A stretch of DNA of 64,000 nucleotides from an uncultured Candidatus Saccharibacteria bacterium. GTDB lineage: Bacteria; Patescibacteriota; Minisyncoccia; Phycocordibacterales; UBA5272. Below, one piece after another: positions 15,624-63,007 of the stretch; the stretch's first letter is position 1, and each line of letters starts with the position of its first letter. Made by a program: the position numbers and the translations under genes. Location: the NCBI GenBank assembly GCA_964512315.1, contig CAZEIK010000003.1, forward strand, positions 22,548 to 86,547. Reading direction: 5' to 3'. The notes under the pieces are model-generated. The model did not search any database and was not told the DNA's origin. It saw nothing but the letters and a program-made list of their open reading frames with translations.

Positions 15624-15646
15624 AATCTTTATAATACTATAAACAC

Positions 15647-15676
15647 AAAAGAGCGTCCAATTAGACGCTCTTTTGT
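15647..15676 (-). terminator. Intrinsic terminator downstream of the 15686-16897 gene.
   Basis: Hairpin agagcgtc-caatta-gacgctct with T-tract on the minus strand. Confidence 0.6.
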
Positions 15677-18897: not shown

Positions 18898-19893
18898 CTA
18901 GCTGTCAAGGCCAATGACTTTTCTAACTTCTTGCATTTTCTGCTGTGCAACAAGTCTCACTCTCTTACCGTTCTCCTCAAGTAGAGTATTTAATTTGTCA
19001 GGATTAGCTAGAAGCTCATTATACTTTTCAACCTTACCCTCTCTCCAAGTCAGTATTGTGTTATAGAGGTCGTCTTTTGCCTCTTTGTAACCATAACCAC
19101 CATTTTCAAATTTTGCACGAAGGGTTGCAACTTCATCCTGATTCAAGAAATGTTTATGTATATTAAAAATATTATTAGTGTCTGGATCTTTTTTATCTGC
19201 TGGTGCTGCTGAATCAGTAACAATACTCATGACAGCCTTCTTCACCTCTTCATCTGACCCAAAGAGTGGTATTACATTCCCTTTACTTTTGCTCATTTTC
19301 TGTCCATCAACGCCAGGTATAGTGCCAACATTTTCAACAGTATAATCTTTTGGTAATTTGAAAACTTCTTCATTCCAAGCTCTGTTGAAAAAACCAGCAA
19401 TGTCGCGAGCGTACTCAACATGTTGCTTTTGATCTGCTCCAACAGGAACAATGTCAGCATTATAAATTAAAATATCCGCAGCCATAAGTACCGGATAATC
19501 GAACAAGCCCACATTCACTTCTTTGTTCTTAGCTTCATGATCTTTAAATGCATGCGCGCGCATAAGATAAGGCATAGTAACTATATTGTTCAATATTACA
19601 CAAAGCTCAGCATGCTCAGGTATACTAGACTGTTTAAATATAAATTCAGGGTTAAGTCCACAAGCTATATAAGCTGCCGCTATTTCAAGTGTTGAAGCTT
19701 TGATTGCATTTTTATCTTTTACTGTAGTTAACGCATGATAGTCAGCTATAAAAATATAAGGCGAGTGCTCATCATTATTCGCTAAGTCTATATTTTGCTT
19801 TAATGCACCAAAATAATTACCAAAATGTAATTTGCCGCTCGCTTGCACTCCAGAGACCAAAACTTTTTTACTCATAGGAATATTATAACACAA
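18898..19893 (-). CDS. trpS: Tryptophanyl-tRNA synthetase.
   Basis: 331 aa, HIGH-like GKLHFGNY, KMSKS. Confidence 0.9.
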   Translation of the reverse strand: MCYNIPMSKKVLVSGVQASGKLHFGNYFGALKQNIDLANNDEHSPYIFIADYHALTTVKDKNAIKASTLEIAAAYIACGLNPEFIFKQSSIPEHAELCVILNNIVTMPYLMRAHAFKDHEAKNKEVNVGLFDYPVLMAADILIYNADIVPVGADQKQHVEYARDIAGFFNRAWNEEVFKLPKDYTVENVGTIPGVDGQKMSKSKGNVIPLFGSDEEVKKAVMSIVTDSAAPADKKDPDTNNIFNIHKHFLNQDEVATLRAKFENGGYGYKEAKDDLYNTILTWREGKVEKYNELLANPDKLNTLLEENGKRVRLVAQQKMQEVRKVIGLDS

Positions 19894-19896
19894 AAC

Positions 19897-19928
19897 AAAA
19901 TGACCCTTGTGGGGGTCATTTTGTTTTG
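19897..19928 (-). terminator. Intrinsic terminator.
   Basis: aaatgaccc-ttgtg-ggggtcattt with flanking T/A tracts. Confidence 0.65.
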
Positions 19929-19937
19929 TGTTAAGTC

Positions 19938-21104: not shown

Positions 21105-22214
21105 TTACACACCCTCCTCTCTCAATTCTTCTACTAATGTTTTTGCTTTGCGAGACAACTTTTTAGGTAACTCTATAGACAATCTAATTATCACATCACC
21201 ACGACCGCGCTTGTTAATATTAGGTACTCCACGACTTGATATTCTTATAGACTCCCCGATACTTGCTCCTGCTGGTATTTCAAAAGAGATATCACCATCT
21301 AGTCCGCCAATCGTTTCTTGCTTACCGAGTAATGCATCAGTTAACTTTATCTTATGAGTTATTACAAGGTCGAATCCCTCCCTGTGCCAATTCTTATCAT
21401 TAGAAACACGTATTTTAACAAAAAGATCTCCTGACTGAGCACCCTTCATAGCTTCACCCATGCCAGACATTTTAATCATTTCACCATTACTAATAGCAGC
21501 TGGAATAATTATATTTACCTCTTCTCTCACATTTTTAATACCAAGACCTTTACAATCAGAACAAGTCTCTTTTGGTATTGTGCCAACACCTTCACAATCA
21601 TCGCAAGTCTTCACAGTCTGAAATGCGCCCATGAATGTTTTTCTTGTTTCGTGTATTTTACCTTTACCATTGCATTTATCACATGTTTTTGTGCCGCTGC
21701 CAGGCTTACCACCTGTGGCGTTACAGGTCTTACATTTTGCGATTTTTGAAATCAAAACTTTTCTTTCTGTGCCGAACACACTCTCAACAAAAGGTATCTC
21801 TATTTCTATAGATATATCCCTGCCTCTTCTAACTCTACCTGATCCCTCGAATCCAAAACCAGAAAACATATCTCCAAATATGTCACCGAGATCACCAAAA
21901 TCAAATTGCATATCTGAGAACTGTGACGGATCGAATCCTCCACCGAACCCTCCAAAACCAGACCCAGCCCCTGGATTAGAATGAGAAAAGCTTTCGCCGT
22001 ACATGTCATACTCTTTTCTCTTTTTGTCGTCACTTAGAATCTGATAAGCTTCGTTGACCTCCTTGAACTTTGCTTCATCACCACCTTTGTCTGGGTGATA
22101 CTTAGCAGCAAGCTTATAAAAAGCCTTTTTTATTTCATCTTTACTAGCACTTTTTGTAACACCTAATGTTGAATAATGATCTTTTTTAGCCATACTTAAG
22201 AGGAAATATAACAC
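21105..22214 (-). CDS. dnaJ: Chaperone DnaJ.
   Basis: J-domain HPD motif, G/F region, four CxxCxGxG zinc-finger repeats. Confidence 0.95.
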   Translation of the reverse strand: MLYFLLSMAKKDHYSTLGVTKSASKDEIKKAFYKLAAKYHPDKGGDEAKFKEVNEAYQILSDDKKRKEYDMYGESFSHSNPGAGSGFGGFGGGFDPSQFSDMQFDFGDLGDIFGDMFSGFGFEGSGRVRRGRDISIEIEIPFVESVFGTERKVLISKIAKCKTCNATGGKPGSGTKTCDKCNGKGKIHETRKTFMGAFQTVKTCDDCEGVGTIPKETCSDCKGLGIKNVREEVNIIIPAAISNGEMIKMSGMGEAMKGAQSGDLFVKIRVSNDKNWHREGFDLVITHKIKLTDALLGKQETIGGLDGDISFEIPAGASIGESIRISSRGVPNINKRGRGDVIIRLSIELPKKLSRKAKTLVEELREEGV

Positions 22215-22246
22215 AAAGCCGGTTGCGTACGCAACCGGCTTTGTGT
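22211..22246. promoter_or_regulatory. 36-nt perfect palindrome in the dnaK-dnaJ intergenic region. Candidate attenuator or processing hairpin.
   Basis: acacaaagccggttgcgtacgcaaccggctttgtgt. Confidence 0.5.
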
Positions 22247-22258
22247 TATATAAAATTA

Positions 22259-24980: not shown

Positions 24981-25023
24981 ACTAATACTTTATATACAAA
25001 AATATTTTTCCTGTCAAGAAAAC

Positions 25024-25054
25024 AAAAACCTCGCCGATGCGAGGTTTTTGTTTG
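25024..25054 (-). terminator. Intrinsic terminator downstream of rpsI.
   Basis: aaaaacctcgc-cgat-gcgaggttttt. Confidence 0.7.
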
Positions 25055-39122: not shown

Positions 39123-39221
39123 AACTGTTTTAAATATAACTTAATCTATTGTCAAAATAGACGTGACTTATGTTGTCACAGATTTTTTATAATAAACACT
39201 AATAAATGTTATGCTACAAAT

Positions 39222-43578: not shown

Positions 43579-43620
43579 AAAGAGAGTGTAGCATAAGAAT
43601 ATTTCTGCTAGAATAAGAAT

Positions 43621-47165: not shown

Positions 47166-48180
47166 TAGTACATTGTAACACTTCTTGATAATCTTTACAC
47201 TCGAATAATTTTTCTCTTAATTCTTTAGCGCCAGAGAATCCGTTAACATAAGCCTTATAATGCTTTTTCATAATAGCAAAGCTTTTAATGTCACCCAGCT
47301 TCTCCTCGTAAAGCTTGGTGTGCTCGAGCATTATGTTTAGCTTTTCCTTTAAAGTGTAGTCTTTTTTATTCCAATCAAATCTCCACGGCGAACCAAATGC
47401 TCCACGACCTATCATCACCCCTTCGGCGGCTATGTCTTGATTAGAATATTTATCTTTTGCGTCGTCTAAGTCTCTTGCATCACCATTACCTATAATAAAA
47501 GTATTAGGAGCGAGACTCTTACAGAAACCCTTTATCTCTTTGTACAGCTCCCAATGAGCAGGGACGTCACTCATCTCTTTTCTTGTTCTTAGATGTATTG
47601 TAAGAGCTGGTACATTACAAGCTAATATATGCGGTAGCCACTCTTTGTATTCAATTTTGTTGTACCCTATACGAGTCTTAACAGACACAGGCATGTCTCC
47701 GGCGGCTTCTTGGGCAGCCTTAATAACCGCAACCGCCAGCTCAGGCGTTCTTATAAGACTAGCCCCTGCGCCTTGCTTATTAATAATATCAACCGGGCAA
47801 CCCATGTTAATATCAACACCGTCGAAGCCTAACTCTTTGCAAATCTTAACTGCCTCGCGCATATTCTCTGGATTAGATGTAAAAAGCTGCGCTACAACCG
47901 GTCTCTCGCTAACACCAAACTCTAAGTCCCTCTTCAGAACTTCGCGACCAGGGCTATTGAGTCCGTCAGCCGCAACAAATTCTGTCCACATAACATCGGG
48001 GCCACCGTCTTCTTGTCCTGTACGACTATACTTAGATATCATTGTTCTAAACACAACATCAGTCACATCAGCCATTGGAGCTAGGACGACAACAGGGCGA
48101 CCTTTAATTATCGCTTTCTCTTGTACTTGTTGCCAGAACTTGTAATTCGGTTGCATATTTATAGAAAACTTTATTCCCAA
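47134..48180 (-). CDS. tRNA-dihydrouridine synthase.
   Basis: TIM-barrel Dus motifs (LAPMADVTD, KTRIG). Confidence 0.85.
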   Translation of the reverse strand: MGIKFSINMQPNYKFWQQVQEKAIIKGRPVVVLAPMADVTDVVFRTMISKYSRTGQEDGGPDVMWTEFVAADGLNSPGREVLKRDLEFGVSERPVVAQLFTSNPENMREAVKICKELGFDGVDINMGCPVDIINKQGAGASLIRTPELAVAVIKAAQEAAGDMPVSVKTRIGYNKIEYKEWLPHILACNVPALTIHLRTRKEMSDVPAHWELYKEIKGFCKSLAPNTFIIGNGDARDLDDAKDKYSNQDIAAEGVMIGRGAFGSPWRFDWNKKDYTLKEKLNIMLEHTKLYEEKLGDIKSFAIMKKHYKAYVNGFSGAKELREKLFECKDYQEVLQCTNEFLSKMETE

Positions 48181-49865: not shown

Positions 49866-50276
49866 TTAACGATTGTACTTTTTAGCAAGCTTGAAACGAT
49901 TCAACTCGCGCAACAGATCGCTGTTAGTATCGAGGCCAGTGTCATCCATTTTTATATTCTTTAACTCTAGCGCACGGTCTAGCGCAGCCTTTGCGGTGTG
50001 TAAGTCTATGCTTTTTATATTCTCATTATGCTCAAGCAAGACCGAGACACGTGTCTGGCCTTTGTTATTTTCAATATTAATCACACCATTATAAGCGGCA
50101 AATATTTCTTCTTCTCCGTCATGGTTGAAACGTATCTCACCGCTGTCTATTGTAGACATTATTGGCTCATGACCAGAAAGAATACTAATAACACCATTCG
50201 AACTAGGCAATGTAACCTTTTCTACACTGCCTTCAAATATTTTCTTTTCTGGTGTTGCTATATAAAGATGTATCAT
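49866..50276 (-). CDS. atpC: ATP synthase F1 epsilon subunit.
   Basis: 136 aa epsilon family. Confidence 0.9.
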   Translation of the reverse strand: MIHLYIATPEKKIFEGSVEKVTLPSSNGVISILSGHEPIMSTIDSGEIRFNHDGEEEIFAAYNGVINIENNKGQTRVSVLLEHNENIKSIDLHTAKAALDRALELKNIKMDDTGLDTNSDLLRELNRFKLAKKYNR

Positions 50277-50280
50277 TATT

Positions 50281-51657
<1,377 letters not shown>

Positions 51658-51683
51658 TTATTTTGACCGATGTATTATAACAT

Positions 51684-51714
51684 AAAAGGCGCTCGCTAGC
51701 GAGCGCCTTTTATG
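51684..51714 (-). terminator. Intrinsic terminator between the inserted gene and atpD.
   Basis: aaaaggcgctcgc-tagc-gagcgcctttt. Confidence 0.7.
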
Positions 51715-51718
51715 TTAT

Positions 51719-52588
51719 TTAGTAACCGTACCAACCTGTATATCTACAAGTTCCAGGTCTTGTTCCATCATAAGCAAATGTCTGATAGTACTGAGCTGTG
51801 TAACCTGTTGGACATGTACAGCGAGAAAGGTCTACCTGAACTCCATCACCAACCGCACAAACATTATTCCAAGTATTGTTATAGTTGTTATTATAGTTAC
51901 AATTACCATAATAATAACAAGTATCATAATAATTATTATTGTAGTTATTATTATAATTACCGTTACTTTGGCACATAAAAGTACCAATGCCATAAGACGT
52001 AACAACGTATCCAGATGGACAAGAACATGTATTTGTACTGTAAATAGTATTTAGATTACAAATAGAAGAGTTGTTCCAGTTGTTATTGTTATTATAGTAA
52101 CCATTAATTTGGCAAGAGAATGCACCACTTCCAGAAACTGGATAATATGCATAATATCCAGATGGACATATACAAGTATTAGAAAGATAAGTTGTATTCA
52201 GTGCACAAGTTGTATTGCTGTTATTGTTGTTATAGTTAACAGGAGTGTTACATGACTTTGCGCGTAACGCTTCACGAGTCATTGTTCCTACATATCCAGT
52301 AGCTGACAAGTTGTTAGCTGATTGAAAATTCTTCACAGCCTGAACTGTAGCATTACCAAAGAATCCAGTAGGATCCTGATACATATATCCCATTTGACCC
52401 AAAAGCTCTTGAAGCTTTGATACTTCTGAGCCAGTATTGCTGTCTCTGTCACCTTTTCTCATATTATAAGAAAAAGTTGTACAAGTGATTGTGTTATTTG
52501 AATTTGAATCAAAATCACCAGAAACTTGTGCCGAAATAGGCAAAATAGTTATAAAAAATAAGGAAATAATGGTTGCTAGCTTTTTCAT
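51719..52588 (-). CDS. Secreted protein: peptidoglycan-binding (PG_binding_1-like) domain followed by Asn/Tyr-rich Cys-motif repeats.
   Basis: Signal peptide. PGB motif (VxxLQxxLxxxGY...DGxFGxxTxxAVxxFQ). Three C-x-LNT-x-Y-x-x-NTC-x-CPSGY repeats separated by poly-N/Y. Confidence 0.6.
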   Translation of the reverse strand: MKKLATIISLFFITILPISAQVSGDFDSNSNNTITCTTFSYNMRKGDRDSNTGSEVSKLQELLGQMGYMYQDPTGFFGNATVQAVKNFQSANNLSATGYVGTMTREALRAKSCNTPVNYNNNNSNTTCALNTTYLSNTCICPSGYYAYYPVSGSGAFSCQINGYYNNNNNWNNSSICNLNTIYSTNTCSCPSGYVVTSYGIGTFMCQSNGNYNNNYNNNYYDTCYYYGNCNYNNNYNNTWNNVCAVGDGVQVDLSRCTCPTGYTAQYYQTFAYDGTRPGTCRYTGWYGY

Positions 52589-52632
52589 GCCTTCATACTA
52601 CAGCTAAACACAAAACTCGTCAAGTGCTAGCT

Positions 52633-53490
52633 TTATTTTGCAATCGCTAATGCTCCGCTAGATATTTCAGCTATTTCTTGAGTAATACCAGCCTGACGCA
52701 CTTTGTTGTACCACAACTTTAACTCACCCAACATCTCGCCTGCGTTATCTGTTGCAGTCTTCATCGCCATCATGCGAGCAGCATGCTCAGCTGCAGATGA
52801 CCTGGCAACAAAAGCTGACAAAATATTCTGCAAGATAATCTTTATCGCTCTATCGTACACAACTGTAACGTTTGGCTCGAAAGTATACTCGAGTCCATCA
52901 ATGCTATCTTTGTTATCAATATTTTTATTACTAAATGGAAGCAACTGAACAGTGTCCACTCTCTGAGAATTAATATTTTCAAAATCTGTATATATAACAT
53001 CCACCCCAGAATAAGCCCCTTCGAGAAAAGCTGACACTATTGTCTTTGTTAACACCCTCGCCGAAGACATAGAGAAAACTTTCTCATTAAATGAAGCGAT
53101 AACACTAGAAGTATCTCCATCGAACTTCTTAGCTATCTTCTCGCCATATTTGCCAATACATATAAAGTCCACATGCCCAGCATTATCTTTTACATATTTG
53201 TATACTTTTCTATATATATTTGTATTGAAGCCACCACACAGCCCCTTCTGACCACCTATTACAATCAAAAGTTTTTTGTGACTATCATTAGGCACTTGTA
53301 GAGGGTGCTTCTCTCTTTGTTCACCAAGTATCGCTAATATTCTCTTTGCTTCTAGAGTAAAAGCCTTATACCCTTCTGCAGTCAAAAGTGACTTTTTCAT
53401 TTTGGCTACTGACACCATCTCCATAGTACGAGTAATCTTACGTATACTTTGAGTTGATTTTATTTTGCTTTTAATTGCTCTAGTTTGCAT
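52633..53490 (-). CDS. atpG: ATP synthase F1 gamma subunit.
   Basis: 285 aa gamma family. Confidence 0.92.
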   Translation of the reverse strand: MQTRAIKSKIKSTQSIRKITRTMEMVSVAKMKKSLLTAEGYKAFTLEAKRILAILGEQREKHPLQVPNDSHKKLLIVIGGQKGLCGGFNTNIYRKVYKYVKDNAGHVDFICIGKYGEKIAKKFDGDTSSVIASFNEKVFSMSSARVLTKTIVSAFLEGAYSGVDVIYTDFENINSQRVDTVQLLPFSNKNIDNKDSIDGLEYTFEPNVTVVYDRAIKIILQNILSAFVARSSAAEHAARMMAMKTATDNAGEMLGELKLWYNKVRQAGITQEIAEISSGALAIAK

Positions 53491-53522: not shown

Positions 53523-55028
53523 TTATTTTGTCTTAGACATGTAGTCTGACTTTACTGTTGCGAGGAAATCTTTTAACTCACCTTCTATCTCCTCATTCCA
53601 ATCTTTAGAAAGCTTGGCTTCTAATTCTTTGTGGTAAGTAGCAAGTGAATTCTGCATAAAGCTTTCAAAGTCTGAAATATTCTTAACATCTATGTCATCA
53701 GTCACTCCAGAGTTAACAGCATAGATAGACGCAGTCTGAGCACCAACACTCATAGGCTCACCATTCTTTTGTTTTAACATCTCTACTGTACGCTTGCCAC
53801 GCTCAATAGTTGACTTGGTTGTCGCATCTAGGTCTGAGTCGAATTGAGCAAAGCTTTCTAGTTCACGATATTGAGCTAGATTAAGCTTCATCATACCAGC
53901 ATTCTTCTTCATTGGTTTCAACTGTGCAGCCGAACCCACACGAGATACAGACAATCCTACATCAATAGCAGGACGTATACCACGATAGAAGAGTCCTGAG
54001 TCCAAGAATATCTGTCCGTCAGTAATAGAGATAACATTAGTAGCAACATAAGCCGATATATCTCCAGCTTGAGTCTCAATAATAGGTAAAGCAGTAATAG
54101 ACCCTCCACCATTCTCAGCGTTCAGCCTACATGCACGCTCGAGCAATCTTGAGTGTAAATAGAAAACATCTCCAGGATAAGCCTCACGTCCTGGTGGTCT
54201 GCGAAGAAGTAGTGACATCTCACGATAAGCAATAGCATGCTTAGACAAGTCATCATAAATAACTAATACGTCTTTGCCTTGCTCCATAAAATACTCCGCA
54301 ACAGCAACACCTGAATAAGGCGCAAGGAAGGATTTGGCTGCACCACCTGATACACCAGCTAATACAACAACTGTATAATCCATCGCCCCCGCTTGAGTTA
54401 GCTTCTCAGTAATCTGCGCAACTTTACTTTCCTTTTGACCAATAGCAACATAAACACAAATAACATCTTTACCTTTTTGATTGATGATTGTGTCTATTGC
54501 TATTGTGGTCTTACCTGTCTGACGGTCACCGATAATAAGCTCACGCTGACCACGACCAACTGGGATCATAGCGTCTATGGATTTTATACCTGTCTGCATT
54601 GGTTGATTGACTGGCTCGCGAGTCATCACACCAGGGGCTACACGCTCAACAACTTGCAACTTAGAAGCAGATATCTTCTTACCTCCATCTAGTGGGTTCA
54701 TAAGAGGGTCCACAACTCTACCCAATATCTCATCCGAAACAGGCACAGAAAGAATTGAATTAGTTCTAGTCACCCTCTCTCCTTCTGATATTTTGTCAGC
54801 ACCATCAATTACCACCACTCCAACATTGTCAGTCTCTAGATTAAGAGCTAGACCTTTTGCGCCAGATGCGAACTCGAGCATTTCCATGCTTTGCGCATTC
54901 TCAAGACCATATACAGAAGCGATACCATCGTATACCTTGGCAACTGTACCTGACTCTTTTACCTCAATACTAGTATTACTATTATTGATTGCTGACTCTA
55001 ACTCTTTTACTATATTTTGTACTGACAT
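53523..55028 (-). CDS. atpA: ATP synthase F1 alpha subunit.
   Basis: Walker A GDRQTGKT. Confidence 0.97.
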
Positions 55029-55039
55029 AATGTTTTTGT

Positions 55040-55378
55040 TTATTTGATAATTTGTTTTAATAATCCATCTAGCGAGGCGTCCAAGATTTTATTTTTAGTA
55101 TAAACTCTGAATCCGGCTATCATGTCTTTATTAACTTTTTGCTTTTGTATTTTGAGGCCGAATTTACTTTCTATAGAAGCGCGAGCCTCATCACTGGTCT
55201 CGAACGGCGTCTCGAGCAATACTTCATCTTGCGTTTCTGTAAAAATTCTTTTCTTGTTTAGGAACTCTAAAGCTTTGGGCAGCAAAAAATTTAGCTTCTT
55301 CTTTTTAACAATATCCAAAAGCTGTTTTGTATTATTTGGATATTTTATAAATACTTCTGCTAATTCTGCCGCCTTCAT
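55040..55378 (-). CDS. atpH: ATP synthase delta (OSCP) subunit, short.
   Basis: 112 aa. Position between atpF and atpA. C-terminal delta-like motif. Confidence 0.6.
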
Positions 55379-55383
55379 TGTTT

Positions 55384-55884
55384 TTACTTTTTAGCGAGTT
55401 GCATGACTATTTTGTCATGTTGCTCTTTTGTTAAGGTCTCAGAAAGTGTTTTCTTCAAAAGGTCTGCAACAAGATTCGGAGCGTAAGTGGCGAACTCTTT
55501 TGCAACACTTTCTTCTGCTCCAGCAATTTTAGATCGCAAGTCTTTGTGTAACTTGTCAGCCTCTAATCTTGCGTCATTGGTAATCTCATCAACAGTCTGC
55601 TTACCAGCATCTACCGCTTTGTGTAAAATGGTTTCTGCTTCAGCCTTTGCAGAACGGACCCTTTCTTCAGCTTCGTCTTTTGCATTGCGAAGTAACTGCT
55701 CAGCGTTAGAAGCATTATCCAGACCTTTTTTAATTACAGATTCACGCTCACGTACAAGATTAACAACTTTTCCAAATACAAATTTGTTCAATACAAAAAG
55801 TATTATTAAAAAGTTAATAAAGTTAGCAAGCGCAACATGCCAATTAAAACCTATTGATTCTAAAATTGAATGGATGAACTCCAT
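55384..55884 (-). CDS. atpF: ATP synthase F0 b subunit.
   Basis: N-terminal TM helix, long charged helix. Confidence 0.8.
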   Translation of the reverse strand: MEFIHSILESIGFNWHVALANFINFLIILFVLNKFVFGKVVNLVRERESVIKKGLDNASNAEQLLRNAKDEAEERVRSAKAEAETILHKAVDAGKQTVDEITNDARLEADKLHKDLRSKIAGAEESVAKEFATYAPNLVADLLKKTLSETLTKEQHDKIVMQLAKK

Positions 55885-55888
55885 TTAT

Positions 55889-56149
55889 TTAGTTGCCTAA
55901 TAAGAAGAATGCAACGAATGCGAAGATCGCTGTTGTCTCGGTCATCGCCACACCCACGATCATTTTAGAGAAAATACTACCTTCGATCTCAGGATTGCGC
56001 CCAATTGCTTCGAAAGCTTTACCGATAAGATAACCCTGTCCTAGGGCTGTTGTTAGCATGCCTAATATTGCCATGCCTTTTGCTATATAAATTGCTGCTT
56101 CTGGTGTCATACAGTTGGAAATTATATCACATTTTGTAACCTTAACCAA
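55889..56149 (-). CDS. atpE: ATP synthase F0 c subunit.
   Basis: Helical hairpin with the conserved carboxylate (GVAMTETTAIF). Confidence 0.9.
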   Translation of the reverse strand: MVKVTKCDIISNCMTPEAAIYIAKGMAILGMLTTALGQGYLIGKAFEAIGRNPEIEGSIFSKMIVGVAMTETTAIFAFVAFFLLGN

Positions 56150-56156
56150 GGAATAA

Positions 56157-56579
56157 CTATTTAATCGCTACCAGTAATGTTCCAGCTACGACAAGGATAA
56201 GGCCAAACACGGCGCGCATTGTGATGCCATCACCTAATACAACAACAGCAAGGGCTGCGGTTAAGACTATGCTTAACTTGTCTATGACAGTAACAGATAC
56301 AGTCGGACCATTAGCAAGAGCGTAATAAAAGAAAAGCCAAGACAATGCACCACCTGCACCCGAGAGTATAATATACATCCACTGCTTTGCAGTTAGAGCT
56401 GACATGGCGGCTTGGTCCAGTTTACCCAAAAGTAATGCTGCTAACGTCACAATCACCGCCATCACCACACCACGAAGACTGGTTAACAAGTTAGAATCAA
56501 CGCCCTTGAGTCCGAATTTGGCAAAAATAGTTCCAAGTGATGCAGCAACAGCACCAGCTAAAGCATAAAATATGTACAT
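56157..56579 (-). CDS. EamA/DMT-family small transporter.
   Basis: 4-TM EamA-like repeat. Start set at ATG 56579. Confidence 0.5.
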   Translation of the reverse strand: MYIFYALAGAVAASLGTIFAKFGLKGVDSNLLTSLRGVVMAVIVTLAALLLGKLDQAAMSALTAKQWMYIILSGAGGALSWLFFYYALANGPTVSVTVIDKLSIVLTAALAVVVLGDGITMRAVFGLILVVAGTLLVAIK

Positions 56580-56621
56580 AAGTAGAAGTATATAACAATA
56601 AGCATCTGTTACAATAGGAAA

Positions 56622-57098
56622 ATGGTAAAGAGAAATAGGAAACAAAAATCTCTCAAACAAAAACTCGAGCGCACTGCCCTATCCGCTACACATTGGATAG
56701 GCTCTATCGAGTCACTGATAATACATACTGCAGTATTTGTGTCTGCCTTTGCTCTCGTATTGTTCGGTGTGTCATTCGACCGTGTGTTGCTAGCACTCAC
56801 CACTGTACTCTCACTTGAAGCCATATACCTAGCCATTTTTATTCAAATGTCAGTAAATCAGAACACTATACAACTAGCTCAAGTTGAGAAGGATGTGGAG
56901 GAAATTCAGGAAGATATAGATGAGATACAAGAGGATGTGGAGGAAATTGCAGAGGATGTAGACGAGATCCAGGCTGACGTTGAACATATTGAGAAAGACA
57001 TCGATGAGATTCAGGAGGACGTACAAGAAATAGAAAAAGATGTCGACGAAATACAAGAAGACGTAGAGGACCTAACCGAAGAGGAGAAGAATGTTTAG
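56622..57098 (+). CDS. DUF1003-like membrane protein with an acidic heptad-repeat tail.
   Basis: 2 TM helices plus an MSVNQN motif, then 9 x DV(E/D)EIQE heptads. Confidence 0.5.
   Translation: MVKRNRKQKSLKQKLERTALSATHWIGSIESLIIHTAVFVSAFALVLFGVSFDRVLLALTTVLSLEAIYLAIFIQMSVNQNTIQLAQVEKDVEEIQEDIDEIQEDVEEIAEDVDEIQADVEHIEKDIDEIQEDVQEIEKDVDEIQEDVEDLTEEEKNV
56892..57080 (+). repeat. 21-nt tandem repeat x9, in frame and coding for DVxEIQE heptads.
   Basis: Seen directly in the sequence. Confidence 0.8.
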
Positions 57099-57144
57099 AG
57101 TTTAAATAAATATTTTGTCTTTATAATTATGATAGACTATATTT

Positions 57145-59695: not shown

Positions 59696-59714
59696 AGTTA
59701 GAATATACTAACAT

Positions 59715-59750
59715 AAAACAAGACCAGCCCGAAGAGCTGGTCTTGTTTTA
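59715..59750 (-). terminator. Intrinsic terminator.
   Basis: aaaacaagaccagc-ccgaa-gagctggtcttgtttt. Confidence 0.7.
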
Positions 59751-59761
59751 TGTATTTAAGA

Positions 59762-60055
59762 TTACTTCCCCTCCATTGCGGCTTGGGCCATTTGCTTTAG
59801 CTTGTTTGGGTCTTCATCTTTAAGCAGTTCAGCTAACTTAGATTGATACTTTTGCATTACTTCAAATGAAGCATACATCTCTGGCTTACCAGCGTCAGTC
59901 AAAGCTTTGATCTCTTTTGCTATATTCTCAAATAGCGCTGGATCTTTTTCCATTAATGTCATTATCATCTCTTGCTGATCTTTAGGAAGATTGCGTGTAC
60001 CAACTTTTGCAGCTTGTTTTAAAAAGAATTGTCTTATGCTCATGTTATTTGGCAA
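59762..60055 (-). CDS. Hypothetical small helical protein.
   Basis: 97 aa ORF. Confidence 0.4.
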   Translation of the reverse strand: MPNNMSIRQFFLKQAAKVGTRNLPKDQQEMIMTLMEKDPALFENIAKEIKALTDAGKPEMYASFEVMQKYQSKLAELLKDEDPNKLKQMAQAAMEGK

Positions 60056-60698
60056 GCTCGGCGTCTAGGTACTTAGAGAAGTTCTCAACCGAAGCGATAT
60101 CCGCTAGATTAGTAATTCTTGTGCCATTAATAATGAATGACGGTGTTCCTTGTAGACCAATAGAAGCAGCCTCTTTCATGTCGCGCTCAACTCTAGCCTT
60201 CACACTAGCGTCAGCCATGTCGGTCTTCATTTTATTAGTATCTATTCCAAGAGCTGCAGCATAGCCAAGTATTTTGACTTCTGCATCTAATGCATTAGCC
60301 CATTCTTCTTGTTTCTCAAACATAACTTTTTTAAGCTCCCAGAATTTATTCTGACGCCCAGCCGCCTCAGCAGCAATAGCTGAAAGCATAGCATTTTGAT
60401 GTATTTGAGTTAATGGGAAATATCTATAGATAAATTTAACTCTGTCAGAATACTTAGCCTCAACAGCAGTTACTATTGGCTCAAATGCTTTACAAGAAGG
60501 ACATTGAAAATCAGCATACTCAACAACTGTAACCTTAGCATCACTTGGACCAACATAATGGTCATCAGCCTGAGTCACAACGTTAACTGGTGCTTCTAAT
60601 TTTTTAACTTGAGAGTATTTGTTATAAGCAAAGAAAGCTATCAAAGCGAGTACTACTGCGATGATAATATTTCTAGTTGAGAATATTTTAGTTTGCAT
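60045..60698 (-). CDS. DsbA-family thiol:disulfide oxidoreductase.
   Basis: TM anchor, CPSC active site. Confidence 0.75.
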   Translation of the reverse strand: MQTKIFSTRNIIIAVVLALIAFFAYNKYSQVKKLEAPVNVVTQADDHYVGPSDAKVTVVEYADFQCPSCKAFEPIVTAVEAKYSDRVKFIYRYFPLTQIHQNAMLSAIAAEAAGRQNKFWELKKVMFEKQEEWANALDAEVKILGYAAALGIDTNKMKTDMADASVKARVERDMKEAASIGLQGTPSFIINGTRITNLADIASVENFSKYLDAELAK

Positions 60699-62097: not shown

Positions 62098-62233
62098 ATT
62101 TAGATTGTAGCATTAAAAATTGCTAATATAACTAGTTTAAATATTTGACACCTATAAAAGTAAGTTGTATAGTGATATTTAAATTTTGAGTTCGCTCAAA
62201 ACAGATCTTTCAACCACCCGAGGAGATACGTTA

Positions 62234-62975: not shown

Positions 62976-63007
62976 CAAAAAGCCGCTCTCGCGGCTTTTT
63001 TTATTTT
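62976..63007 (+). terminator. Intrinsic terminator.
   Basis: aaaaagccgc-tctc-gcggcttttttt. Confidence 0.8.

Follow-up and report, generated by a model that had tools for sequence, protein, structure and literature searches.

A gene for a predicted secreted protein at the atpG-atpD junction

The 64,000 nucleotide (nt) stretch analyzed here (the window) derives from an uncultured Candidatus Saccharibacteria bacterium and carries a set of ATP synthase (atp) genes interrupted by an open reading frame (ORF) of 289 codons at positions 51719-52588 of the minus strand (-). Its product, for which we use the label PGB, was assigned from the ORF, Pfam matches and orthologues as a predicted secreted peptidoglycan (PG)-binding protein with cysteine repeats. 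Genes on the minus strand are ordered atpE, atpF, atpH, atpA, atpG, PGB, atpD, atpC and serS, placing PGB between atpG (F1 gamma subunit, 52633-53490, -) and atpD (F1 beta subunit, 50281-51654, -), both identified by Pfam, as a preliminary description of this DNA had stated. The 44 nt gap between atpG and PGB contains a promoter-like site for PGB and no hairpin. The PGB stop codon is followed directly by a perfect palindromic hairpin (51677-51718, -), the 3' arm of which overlaps an extended -10 box preceding atpD; 64 nt separate PGB from atpD. The atpC gene (F1 epsilon subunit, 49866-50276, -; ORF and Pfam) comes next, and serS begins 15 nt after atpC with no hairpin in that gap. These features probably reflect a gene for a wall-held surface protein, equipped with its own promoter and terminator, that splits the atp cluster into two predicted transcription units.

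Predicted export signal, peptidoglycan-binding domain and cysteine repeats of PGB

The N-terminus of PGB, MKKLATIISLFFITILPISA followed by QV, displays on inspection the n-, h- and c-regions of a Sec signal peptide with no lipobox. This segment (about residues 1-20, ending before the Q; 52529-52588, -) is hydrophobic in all orthologues, in agreement with the signal peptide originally proposed. The PG_binding_1 family (PF01471) matched residues 52-108 (52265-52435, -), which lie between the invariant Cys36 and Cys113, with 61 bits against a cut-off of 23 (E 1.2e-16) and over profile positions 1-57 of 57, so that the PG-binding domain claimed from the sequence passed a profile search. AlphaFold2 (AF2) modelling of this region produced helices at residues 50-65, 79-91 and 102-112 (predicted local distance difference test, pLDDT, 75-80), that is, the three-helix bundle of PG_binding_1 as a predicted fold. 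A Foldseek search with this model retrieved the SleB N-terminal domain (6tci, TMt 0.89, root-mean-square deviation 1.7) and also CtpB and endolysins, with E values of only 3e-3 to 1e-2. Matches in NCBIfam and PHROGs were confined to the wall-binding modules of SleB, PG hydrolases and endolysins, and no enzyme or catalytic domain was found in PGB among Pfam, NCBIfam and PHROGs. PGB thus shares the PF01471 domain and the predicted three-helix fold with SleB, CtpB, phage endolysins and L,D-transpeptidases, but whereas those proteins pair the domain with a catalytic module, PGB pairs it with a cysteine-repeat stalk rich in Asn and Tyr.

The repeats occupy the C-terminal 60 % of PGB and have the form C-x10-13-C-x-C-P-[SA]-G-Y-x(n)-C. 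Repeat alignment delineated unit 1 at residues 128-159 (52112-52207, -), unit 2 at residues 177-206 (51971-52060, -) and a divergent unit 3 at residues 244-281 (51746-51859, -; CAVGDGVQVDLSRCTCPTGY...C). Of the three copies of C-x-LNT-x-Y-x-x-NTC-x-CPSGY described initially, the first two match that motif exactly and the third is only a divergent copy, although among orthologues unit 3 is the best-conserved part of the C-terminal half. An additional CYYYGNC loop is present between repeat units, and the Asn/Tyr tracts reported between repeats are indeed found as Asn/Tyr-rich linkers, the protein as a whole containing 15.9 % Asn and 10.7 % Tyr. All 16 cysteines are invariant across six orthologues, the linkers differ in length, and one orthologue (P0002) has one more repeat unit. 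In total, 30 units were collected from nine proteins, each with four cysteines in the arrangement C-x10-13-C-x-C-x(n)-C, and a profile built from the repeat unit matched the PGB ORF only within the window (E 2e-30). Structure prediction for the repeat unit yielded a model with two beta-hairpins (pLDDT 75.7; strands at 23-26 and 35-39).

These repeats appear in no curated family. The repeat profile (33-46 residues) gave no match at E <= 0.01 among 5.8 billion proteins because it is too short for a database of this size, and a search of 1.84 billion representatives with the single sequence of the C-terminal half recovered nothing beyond PGB itself and a weak match to P0011 (E 1.7e-4), indicating that the repeat region is either rare or too biased in composition for phmmer. 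Only ten proteins were obtained from the 5.8-billion set, the named ones being mostly annotated 'hypothetical protein', and no description of this repeat or of this gene arrangement was found in the literature. In curated libraries the only resemblance, below threshold, is to EGF-like modules. With EGF-like, cEGF (PF12662) and EB (PF01683) domains the PGB unit shares a C-x-C-x2-G-[YFW] signature followed by a beta-hairpin, and its nearly invariant C-x-C-P-[SA]-G-Y core, beta-hairpin and closing cysteine resemble the C-terminal half of EGF. A search of PDB sequences with the repeat profile likewise picked out the CxCPxGY stretch of the VLDLR and MIC2 EGF modules (E 0.06-0.1, best 0.059). However, EGF has six cysteines forming three disulfides (1-3, 2-4, 5-6) where the PGB unit has four, and all EGF-like profiles scored below their curated cut-offs (cEGF 18.8 versus 26.6 bits, FXa_inhibition 17.5 versus 33.4, EB 15 versus 24.3). 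The repeat is therefore a rare 4-Cys module carrying only an EGF-like signature, and the initial impression of an unusual repeat architecture was well founded.

The protein is predicted to be Sec-exported and non-catalytic, with the N-terminal three-helix PG_binding_1 domain holding it non-covalently on PG and the C-terminal stalk built from three small 4-Cys modules, each a disulfide-bonded beta-hairpin unit, with Asn/Tyr-rich linkers as spacers. The 16 cysteines would form eight disulfides, C36-C113 among them and two in each repeat. As inferred from sequence, PGB most likely serves an epibiotic Patescibacterium as a surface or adhesion protein associated with the wall. In Paceibacteria, genes for secreted proteins with PG-binding domains (PGBD) have been reported to rank with the most highly expressed genes of unknown function, and a part in host attachment was proposed for these proteins (PMC10936435). 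PGB belongs to the same phylum and shares with those PGBD/Ig-like/PKD proteins the combination of signal peptide, PG-binding domain and non-catalytic extracellular modules, and a distant homologue of PGB (P0005) carries PKD domains as the Paceibacteria set does. The likeness is one of architecture, and high expression is reported for the Paceibacteria proteins only. PGB is a reasonable candidate for a part in the surface biology or host contact of these organisms, of which few such proteins are known. A gene for a DsbA-like thioredoxin-fold protein (60045-60698, -; Thioredoxin_4 E 2.4e-31, DSBA E 7e-18) lies 7.5 kb from PGB; this is consistent with extracytoplasmic disulfide formation, and its product is a plausible candidate oxidase for the 16-Cys secreted protein.

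Several observations count against this view of the protein. Full-length AF2 models, built with nine sequences, were poor beyond the PG-binding domain (mean pLDDT 51.5), and a Foldseek search of the PDB with the repeat-unit model returned nothing significant (best E 2.5), so that structure prediction of the repeats provided a two-hairpin model with no significant structural neighbor. PG binding and disulfide bonding are both predictions from sequence, which alone cannot tell binding of the cell's own wall from binding of a host wall. The last point bears on a reading of PGB as a secreted effector directed against a host wall, its PG-binding domain engaging host PG and its cysteine modules being knottin- or antimicrobial-like. 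The closest structural neighbors of the repeat model, neither of them significant, were tachystatin B, a cystine-knot antimicrobial peptide and the best knottin-type match (E 2.5, Foldseek probability 0.33), and a double inhibitor cystine knot (ICK) toxin (TM about 0.6 and E 2.5-4.6 for these neighbors); moreover, Patescibacteria are epibionts or parasites whose PG-binding-domain proteins have been proposed to contact hosts (PMC10936435). We nevertheless regard an effector role as fairly improbable, since such structural matches are at chance level, a knottin or inhibitor cystine knot has six cysteines and the PGB unit four, and Pfam, NCBIfam and PHROGs revealed no toxin or enzyme domain.

A predicted terminator and promoters around PGB

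The hairpin that follows PGB is a palindrome perfect over 19 bp, ATAACATAAAAGGCGCTCG-CTAG-CGAGCGCCTTTTATGTTAT, the first base of which comes directly after the TAA stop codon. It has a GC core (GGCGCUCG/CGAGCGCC) followed by UUUUAUGUU, and its predicted folding energy of -32 kcal/mol compares with -10.8 +/- 2.4 kcal/mol for shuffled sequences (z -8.9), none of 200 shuffles being as stable. GC stem-loop, U-run and position just past a stop codon together give the anatomy of an intrinsic terminator. A simple terminator scan missed this hairpin because the stem absorbs the T-run. In a census of the 64 kb window, 12 perfect GC-rich hairpins were detected. Intergenic DNA, approximately 7.5 % of the bases, contains 10 of them, and most of the 12 are long A-tract/T-tract palindromes at gene ends. 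As in Rho-independent terminators, including bidirectional A-tract/U-tract palindromes, the PGB hairpin combines a GC stem, a short loop and a 3' U-run and sits right after a stop codon, and hairpins of this type are enriched in intergenic DNA. It differs from ordinary Rho-independent terminators in that the palindrome is perfect over its 19 bp and runs past the U-run into the next extended -10 box.

Comparison with related loci (labelled L001-L106 for the homologous or compared contigs and metagenome-assembled genome (MAG) loci, and WIN for the locus in the window) indicated that structure is conserved over sequence at this site. Between the hairpins of WIN and those of L009, L010 and L011 there are two compensatory pair changes with 100 % of alignment cells paired, in an alignment of only five distinct rows for which the statistics are weak. 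In L001, in L002-L004 and in L092, three unrelated hairpins with a GC stem and T-run occupy the orthologous site. A hairpin was thus always found at the orthologous position, though not always a homologous one. By contrast, no hairpin was present where atpG and atpD are adjacent in the canonical clusters of L016, L017, L019 and L021, the short gaps of which contain no fold better than -3.4 kcal/mol. Compensatory changes and non-homologous replacements alike favor the strong terminator ascribed to this site in the preliminary description, as a prediction from sequence.

Long perfect palindromes at gene ends were recorded at 15645-15676, 19886-19933, 22206-22251, 25020-25053, 51677-51718, 59711-59753 and 62977-63000 of the window and at 2347-2403 and 3719-3762 of L106. 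Stem lengths are 13-21 bp in the window and reach 28 bp in L106. Beyond the A/T runs, the outer arms of these palindromes take in the TGTTAT part of the extended -10 box that belongs to the following gene. Bidirectional termination and perfecting of a quasi-palindrome are both possibilities for this overlap between palindrome and downstream promoter. Three Logan contigs (L005, L006 and L009) end inside the PGB hairpin, 30-50 nt past the stop codon, presumably due to assembly breaking at a perfect palindrome; in assemblies from short reads, such breaks leave the part of the junction toward atpD out of view. An Rfam match to Thr_leader at 51680-51797 (-), covering the PGB 3' end and the hairpin, scored 27.4 bits where the gathering threshold is 55 (E 0.066) and was dismissed as a coincidental resemblance to the shape of a terminator.

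An extended -10 box, TGTTATAAT (51674-51682, -), lies 19 nt before the atpD ATG. The arrangement TGTTATAAT-N19-ATG was conserved before atpD in 5 of the 5 loci that reach this gene (WIN, L001, L002, L010 and L011) and was also present in the distant L091. The window contains 11 copies of TGTTATAAT against about two expected, 10 of which are on the coding (gene-dense) strand and most of which lie 2-25 nt upstream of start codons, an excess suggesting that it represents this genome's strong extended -10 consensus. In sequence (TGnTATAAT), distance from the gene, conservation and enrichment the box therefore agrees with a sigma-70 extended -10 element. It had been argued from the terminator that atpD-atpC would need independent transcription, and this conserved, perfect box is a promoter candidate that would meet the need. 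A second extended -10 box, TGATATAAT (56121-56129, -), was located 10 nt before the atpE ATG at 56110 and has TTGGTT at -35, a spacer of 17 and TATAAT with a TG extension.

PGB itself is preceded by a promoter-like site found by motif scan and conservation, TTGACG-N17-TAGTAT (52595-52623, -), with the -10 hexamer ending 6 nt before the ATG. In L001, L002, L005, L006, L009, L010 and L011 the hexamers are retained as TTGAC[AG]-N17-TAGTAT, 6-8 nt before the PGB ATG and with a variable spacer sequence, and the distant homologue P0008 is preceded by the similar TTGACA-N16-TAGAAT-8-ATG. A -10 element ending 6-8 nt from the ATG implies a near-leaderless message, and the PGB mRNA is probably leaderless or nearly so. 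For many genes elsewhere in the window, the distance from the end of an extended -10 box of the form TGnTAnnnT to the start codon is exactly 6 nt (for example 39207-39215, 43585-43593, 43606-43614, 47172-47180, 56607-56615, 57130-57138 and 62104-62112), and there are practically no Shine-Dalgarno motifs; this genome appears to make wide use of mRNAs with very short leaders or none. A GAAGG before the PGB ATG was rejected as a Shine-Dalgarno sequence, as its spacing is 1 nt, it is not kept in L010 or L011 and the genome is generally without such motifs.

The conserved hairpin and promoter elements therefore predict two transcription units. In the first, the strong extended -10 promoter before atpE would drive atpE-F-H-A-G and continue into PGB, which is probably also the last cistron of this unit because no terminator separates it from atpG. 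PGB would additionally be transcribed from its own -35/-10 promoter, giving a leaderless or nearly leaderless message, and both transcripts would stop at the GC-rich hairpin and U-tract after the PGB stop codon. In the second, TGTTATAAT would drive atpD-atpC-serS and the tightly packed genes downstream.

A different outcome is conceivable, in which the hairpin acts as a leaky attenuator or as an mRNA-stabilizing 3' or internal stem-loop, atpD-atpC is mostly co-transcribed with atpEFHAG-PGB and TGTTATAAT is supplementary. The U-tract is short, interrupted (UUUUAUGUU) and fully complementary to the upstream A-tract with which it pairs, so termination may be partial. This tells against the two-unit model, in which termination at the hairpin in vivo, including its efficiency, and use of the predicted promoters are likewise extrapolated from sequence. 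Nothing intervenes between atpG and PGB, and subunit stoichiometry would favor coupling. On the other hand, all four independent versions of the hairpin have a GC stem and T-run, and this genome and L106 both have further modules of hairpin plus promoter between unrelated genes. In addition, atpD-atpC occur without atpG in L091, and atpG without atpD in L012-L015, L018 and L020, indicating that independent expression of beta and epsilon is viable in this phylum. Attenuation or stabilization with predominant co-transcription is on this evidence unlikely, and the two-unit arrangement is preferred.

PGB and the atp cluster among Patescibacteria

The nearest MAGs carry the NCBI label 'uncultured Candidatus Saccharibacteria', and farther relatives are labelled Patescibacteria and Paceibacteria. 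Within the clade, a small group of ultrasmall Patescibacteria with atpG identity of at least 80 %, close PGB homologues were found in L001, L002-L005, L006-L008, L009, L010, L011 and L092. The last of these was the only orthologue added by a metagenome profile search, the other matches of which shared the PG_binding_1 domain only. All close homologues are located directly after atpG, with atpD next wherever the contig reaches (about ten independent contigs or MAGs), and the proteins are 57-100 % identical. This shared position indicates an arrangement ancestral to the clade rather than a recent insertion. Comparison of the atp cluster in relatives thus revealed the same position of PGB clade-wide, with a hairpin always at the site. 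The description of PGB as inserted inside the ATP synthase operon accordingly holds for its position and not for a recent event; from sequence comparison PGB is an old, clade-wide resident of the junction.

The term operon also requires qualification. PGB does split the cluster, but the 5' part of atpB (F0 a subunit), cut by the window end, was found at positions 1-282 (-; tblastn E 6e-16 to Patescibacteria atpB, ATP-synt_A E 1.8e-6), 55 kb from atpE. With atpE (55889-56110), atpF, atpH and atpA at 53523-56110 (-; ORFs and Pfam), and with PGB and the hairpin between atpG and atpD, the eight genes do not form a contiguous polycistronic atpBEFHAGDC operon free of internal terminators and foreign genes. 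Irrespective of PGB, this lineage does not keep its atp genes in a single operon, and in several other Patescibacteria gamma is unlinked from beta and epsilon. Canonical contiguity was seen in L016, L017, L019 and L021; in L012-L015, L018 and L020 no atpD occurs within 6 kb of atpG, where prfB, obg and other genes lie instead, and in L022 a NUDIX gene and a membrane-protein gene separate atpG from atpD. The gamma-beta junction is thus a recurrent break point across Patescibacteria.

Cyanobacteria and chloroplasts have split atp clusters, atp1 (a, c, b', b, delta, alpha, gamma) and atp2 (beta, epsilon). The break after gamma is the same, with beta and epsilon in a separate unit that is a prediction in the case described here. 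In contrast to atp1 and atp2, the two units here are approximately 1 kb apart with one unrelated gene and its terminator-promoter module between them, and beta and epsilon continue into serS and other housekeeping genes. The components of the locus are of known kinds, namely a PG_binding_1 wall protein, an intrinsic terminator, an extended -10 promoter and a split atp cluster; what is new is the rare 4-Cys repeat and the documented rewiring of an operon around a lineage-specific surface-protein gene. Supported by comparative genomics, the locus offers a clean example of an ancient, near-universal atp operon dismantled in genome-reduced Patescibacteria, with downstream essential genes carrying a compensating strong promoter, as predicted, and with the same junction repeatedly broken or invaded across the phylum.

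Variation at the junction bears on the possibility that PGB is a mobile, cassette-like or horizontally acquired insertion at a permissive site, with the palindromes as recombination or cassette boundaries. An extra gene of 149 codons is present between atpG and PGB in L002 (7363-8000) and also in L003 and L004, at the equivalent of window positions of approximately 52589-52632. These loci have identical PGB proteins. The extra gene has a GC content of 48 % compared with 37 % for atpG and 34 % for PGB, has its own terminator hairpin, gave no Pfam or PHROG match and has on either side a copy of the 11-bp direct repeat ACTTGACGAGT, in which the -35 box of the PGB promoter is duplicated; it looks like a recent cassette-like gain at the atpG-PGB junction. 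The two extra ORFs between atpA and atpG in L006, the two other genes at the gamma-beta junction of L022 and the swapping of hairpins between near-identical strains would also suit such an origin for PGB. Against it, PGB occupies the same place in every clade member at the identities given above, its GC content is not foreign, no integrase or transposase was seen in the examined loci, and the palindromes have terminator anatomy and lie at gene ends throughout the window. A mobile or acquired insertion therefore seems to us quite improbable, and long residence at the junction the better account of PGB.

Distant homologues occur in other settings. In L091 the order is gatCA, the homologue P0008 and atpDC, with atpG not upstream. 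The homologue P0005/P0030 (L106 2430-3716; also L090) lies with two unknown genes between rplX and rplE, where P0030, which carries PG_binding_1, 4-Cys repeats and PKD, interrupts the ribosomal-protein operon of another Patescibacterium; terminator-promoter modules of palindromic hairpins and extended -10 boxes bracket this insertion. The related P0007 (L104) is not adjacent to atpD. Adjacency to atpD, kept in the clade and recurring in L091, might suggest a functional link of PGB to ATP synthase, such as the role of an accessory or tether outside the cytoplasm. This was rejected as highly improbable: P0007 and P0005/P0030 are located elsewhere, F1 beta and epsilon are cytoplasmic and PGB is predicted to be exported, and the PGB gene has its own predicted promoter and terminator.

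More speculatively, these proteins might constitute an as yet undescribed, Patescibacteria-specific family of disulfide-rich surface adhesins that attach to the host wall and whose genes are preferentially lodged, as self-contained promoter-terminator units, in the most highly expressed housekeeping clusters, a proposal we consider rather doubtful. If true, the family would sit at the atpG-atpD junction (the WIN clade and L091) and between rplX and rplE (L106), and its position would exploit high local expression and force ancient operons to gain new internal promoters.

PG_binding_1 paralogues without cysteine repeats were observed near the PGB homologue at L091 1728-2618, L104 964-1854 and L105 2475-3134, which points to a modest expansion of secreted wall-binding proteins in these lineages. 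Further ORFs were noted within atp clusters, with 116-residue and 140-residue products (GC 28-31 %) encoded between atpA and atpG in L006 (1233-2050) and also in L007, and a 185-residue product encoded between atpB and atpE in L016 (2679-3236). In the window, the usual slot of atpB beside atpE is taken by a gene for an EamA-family transporter (56157-56660).

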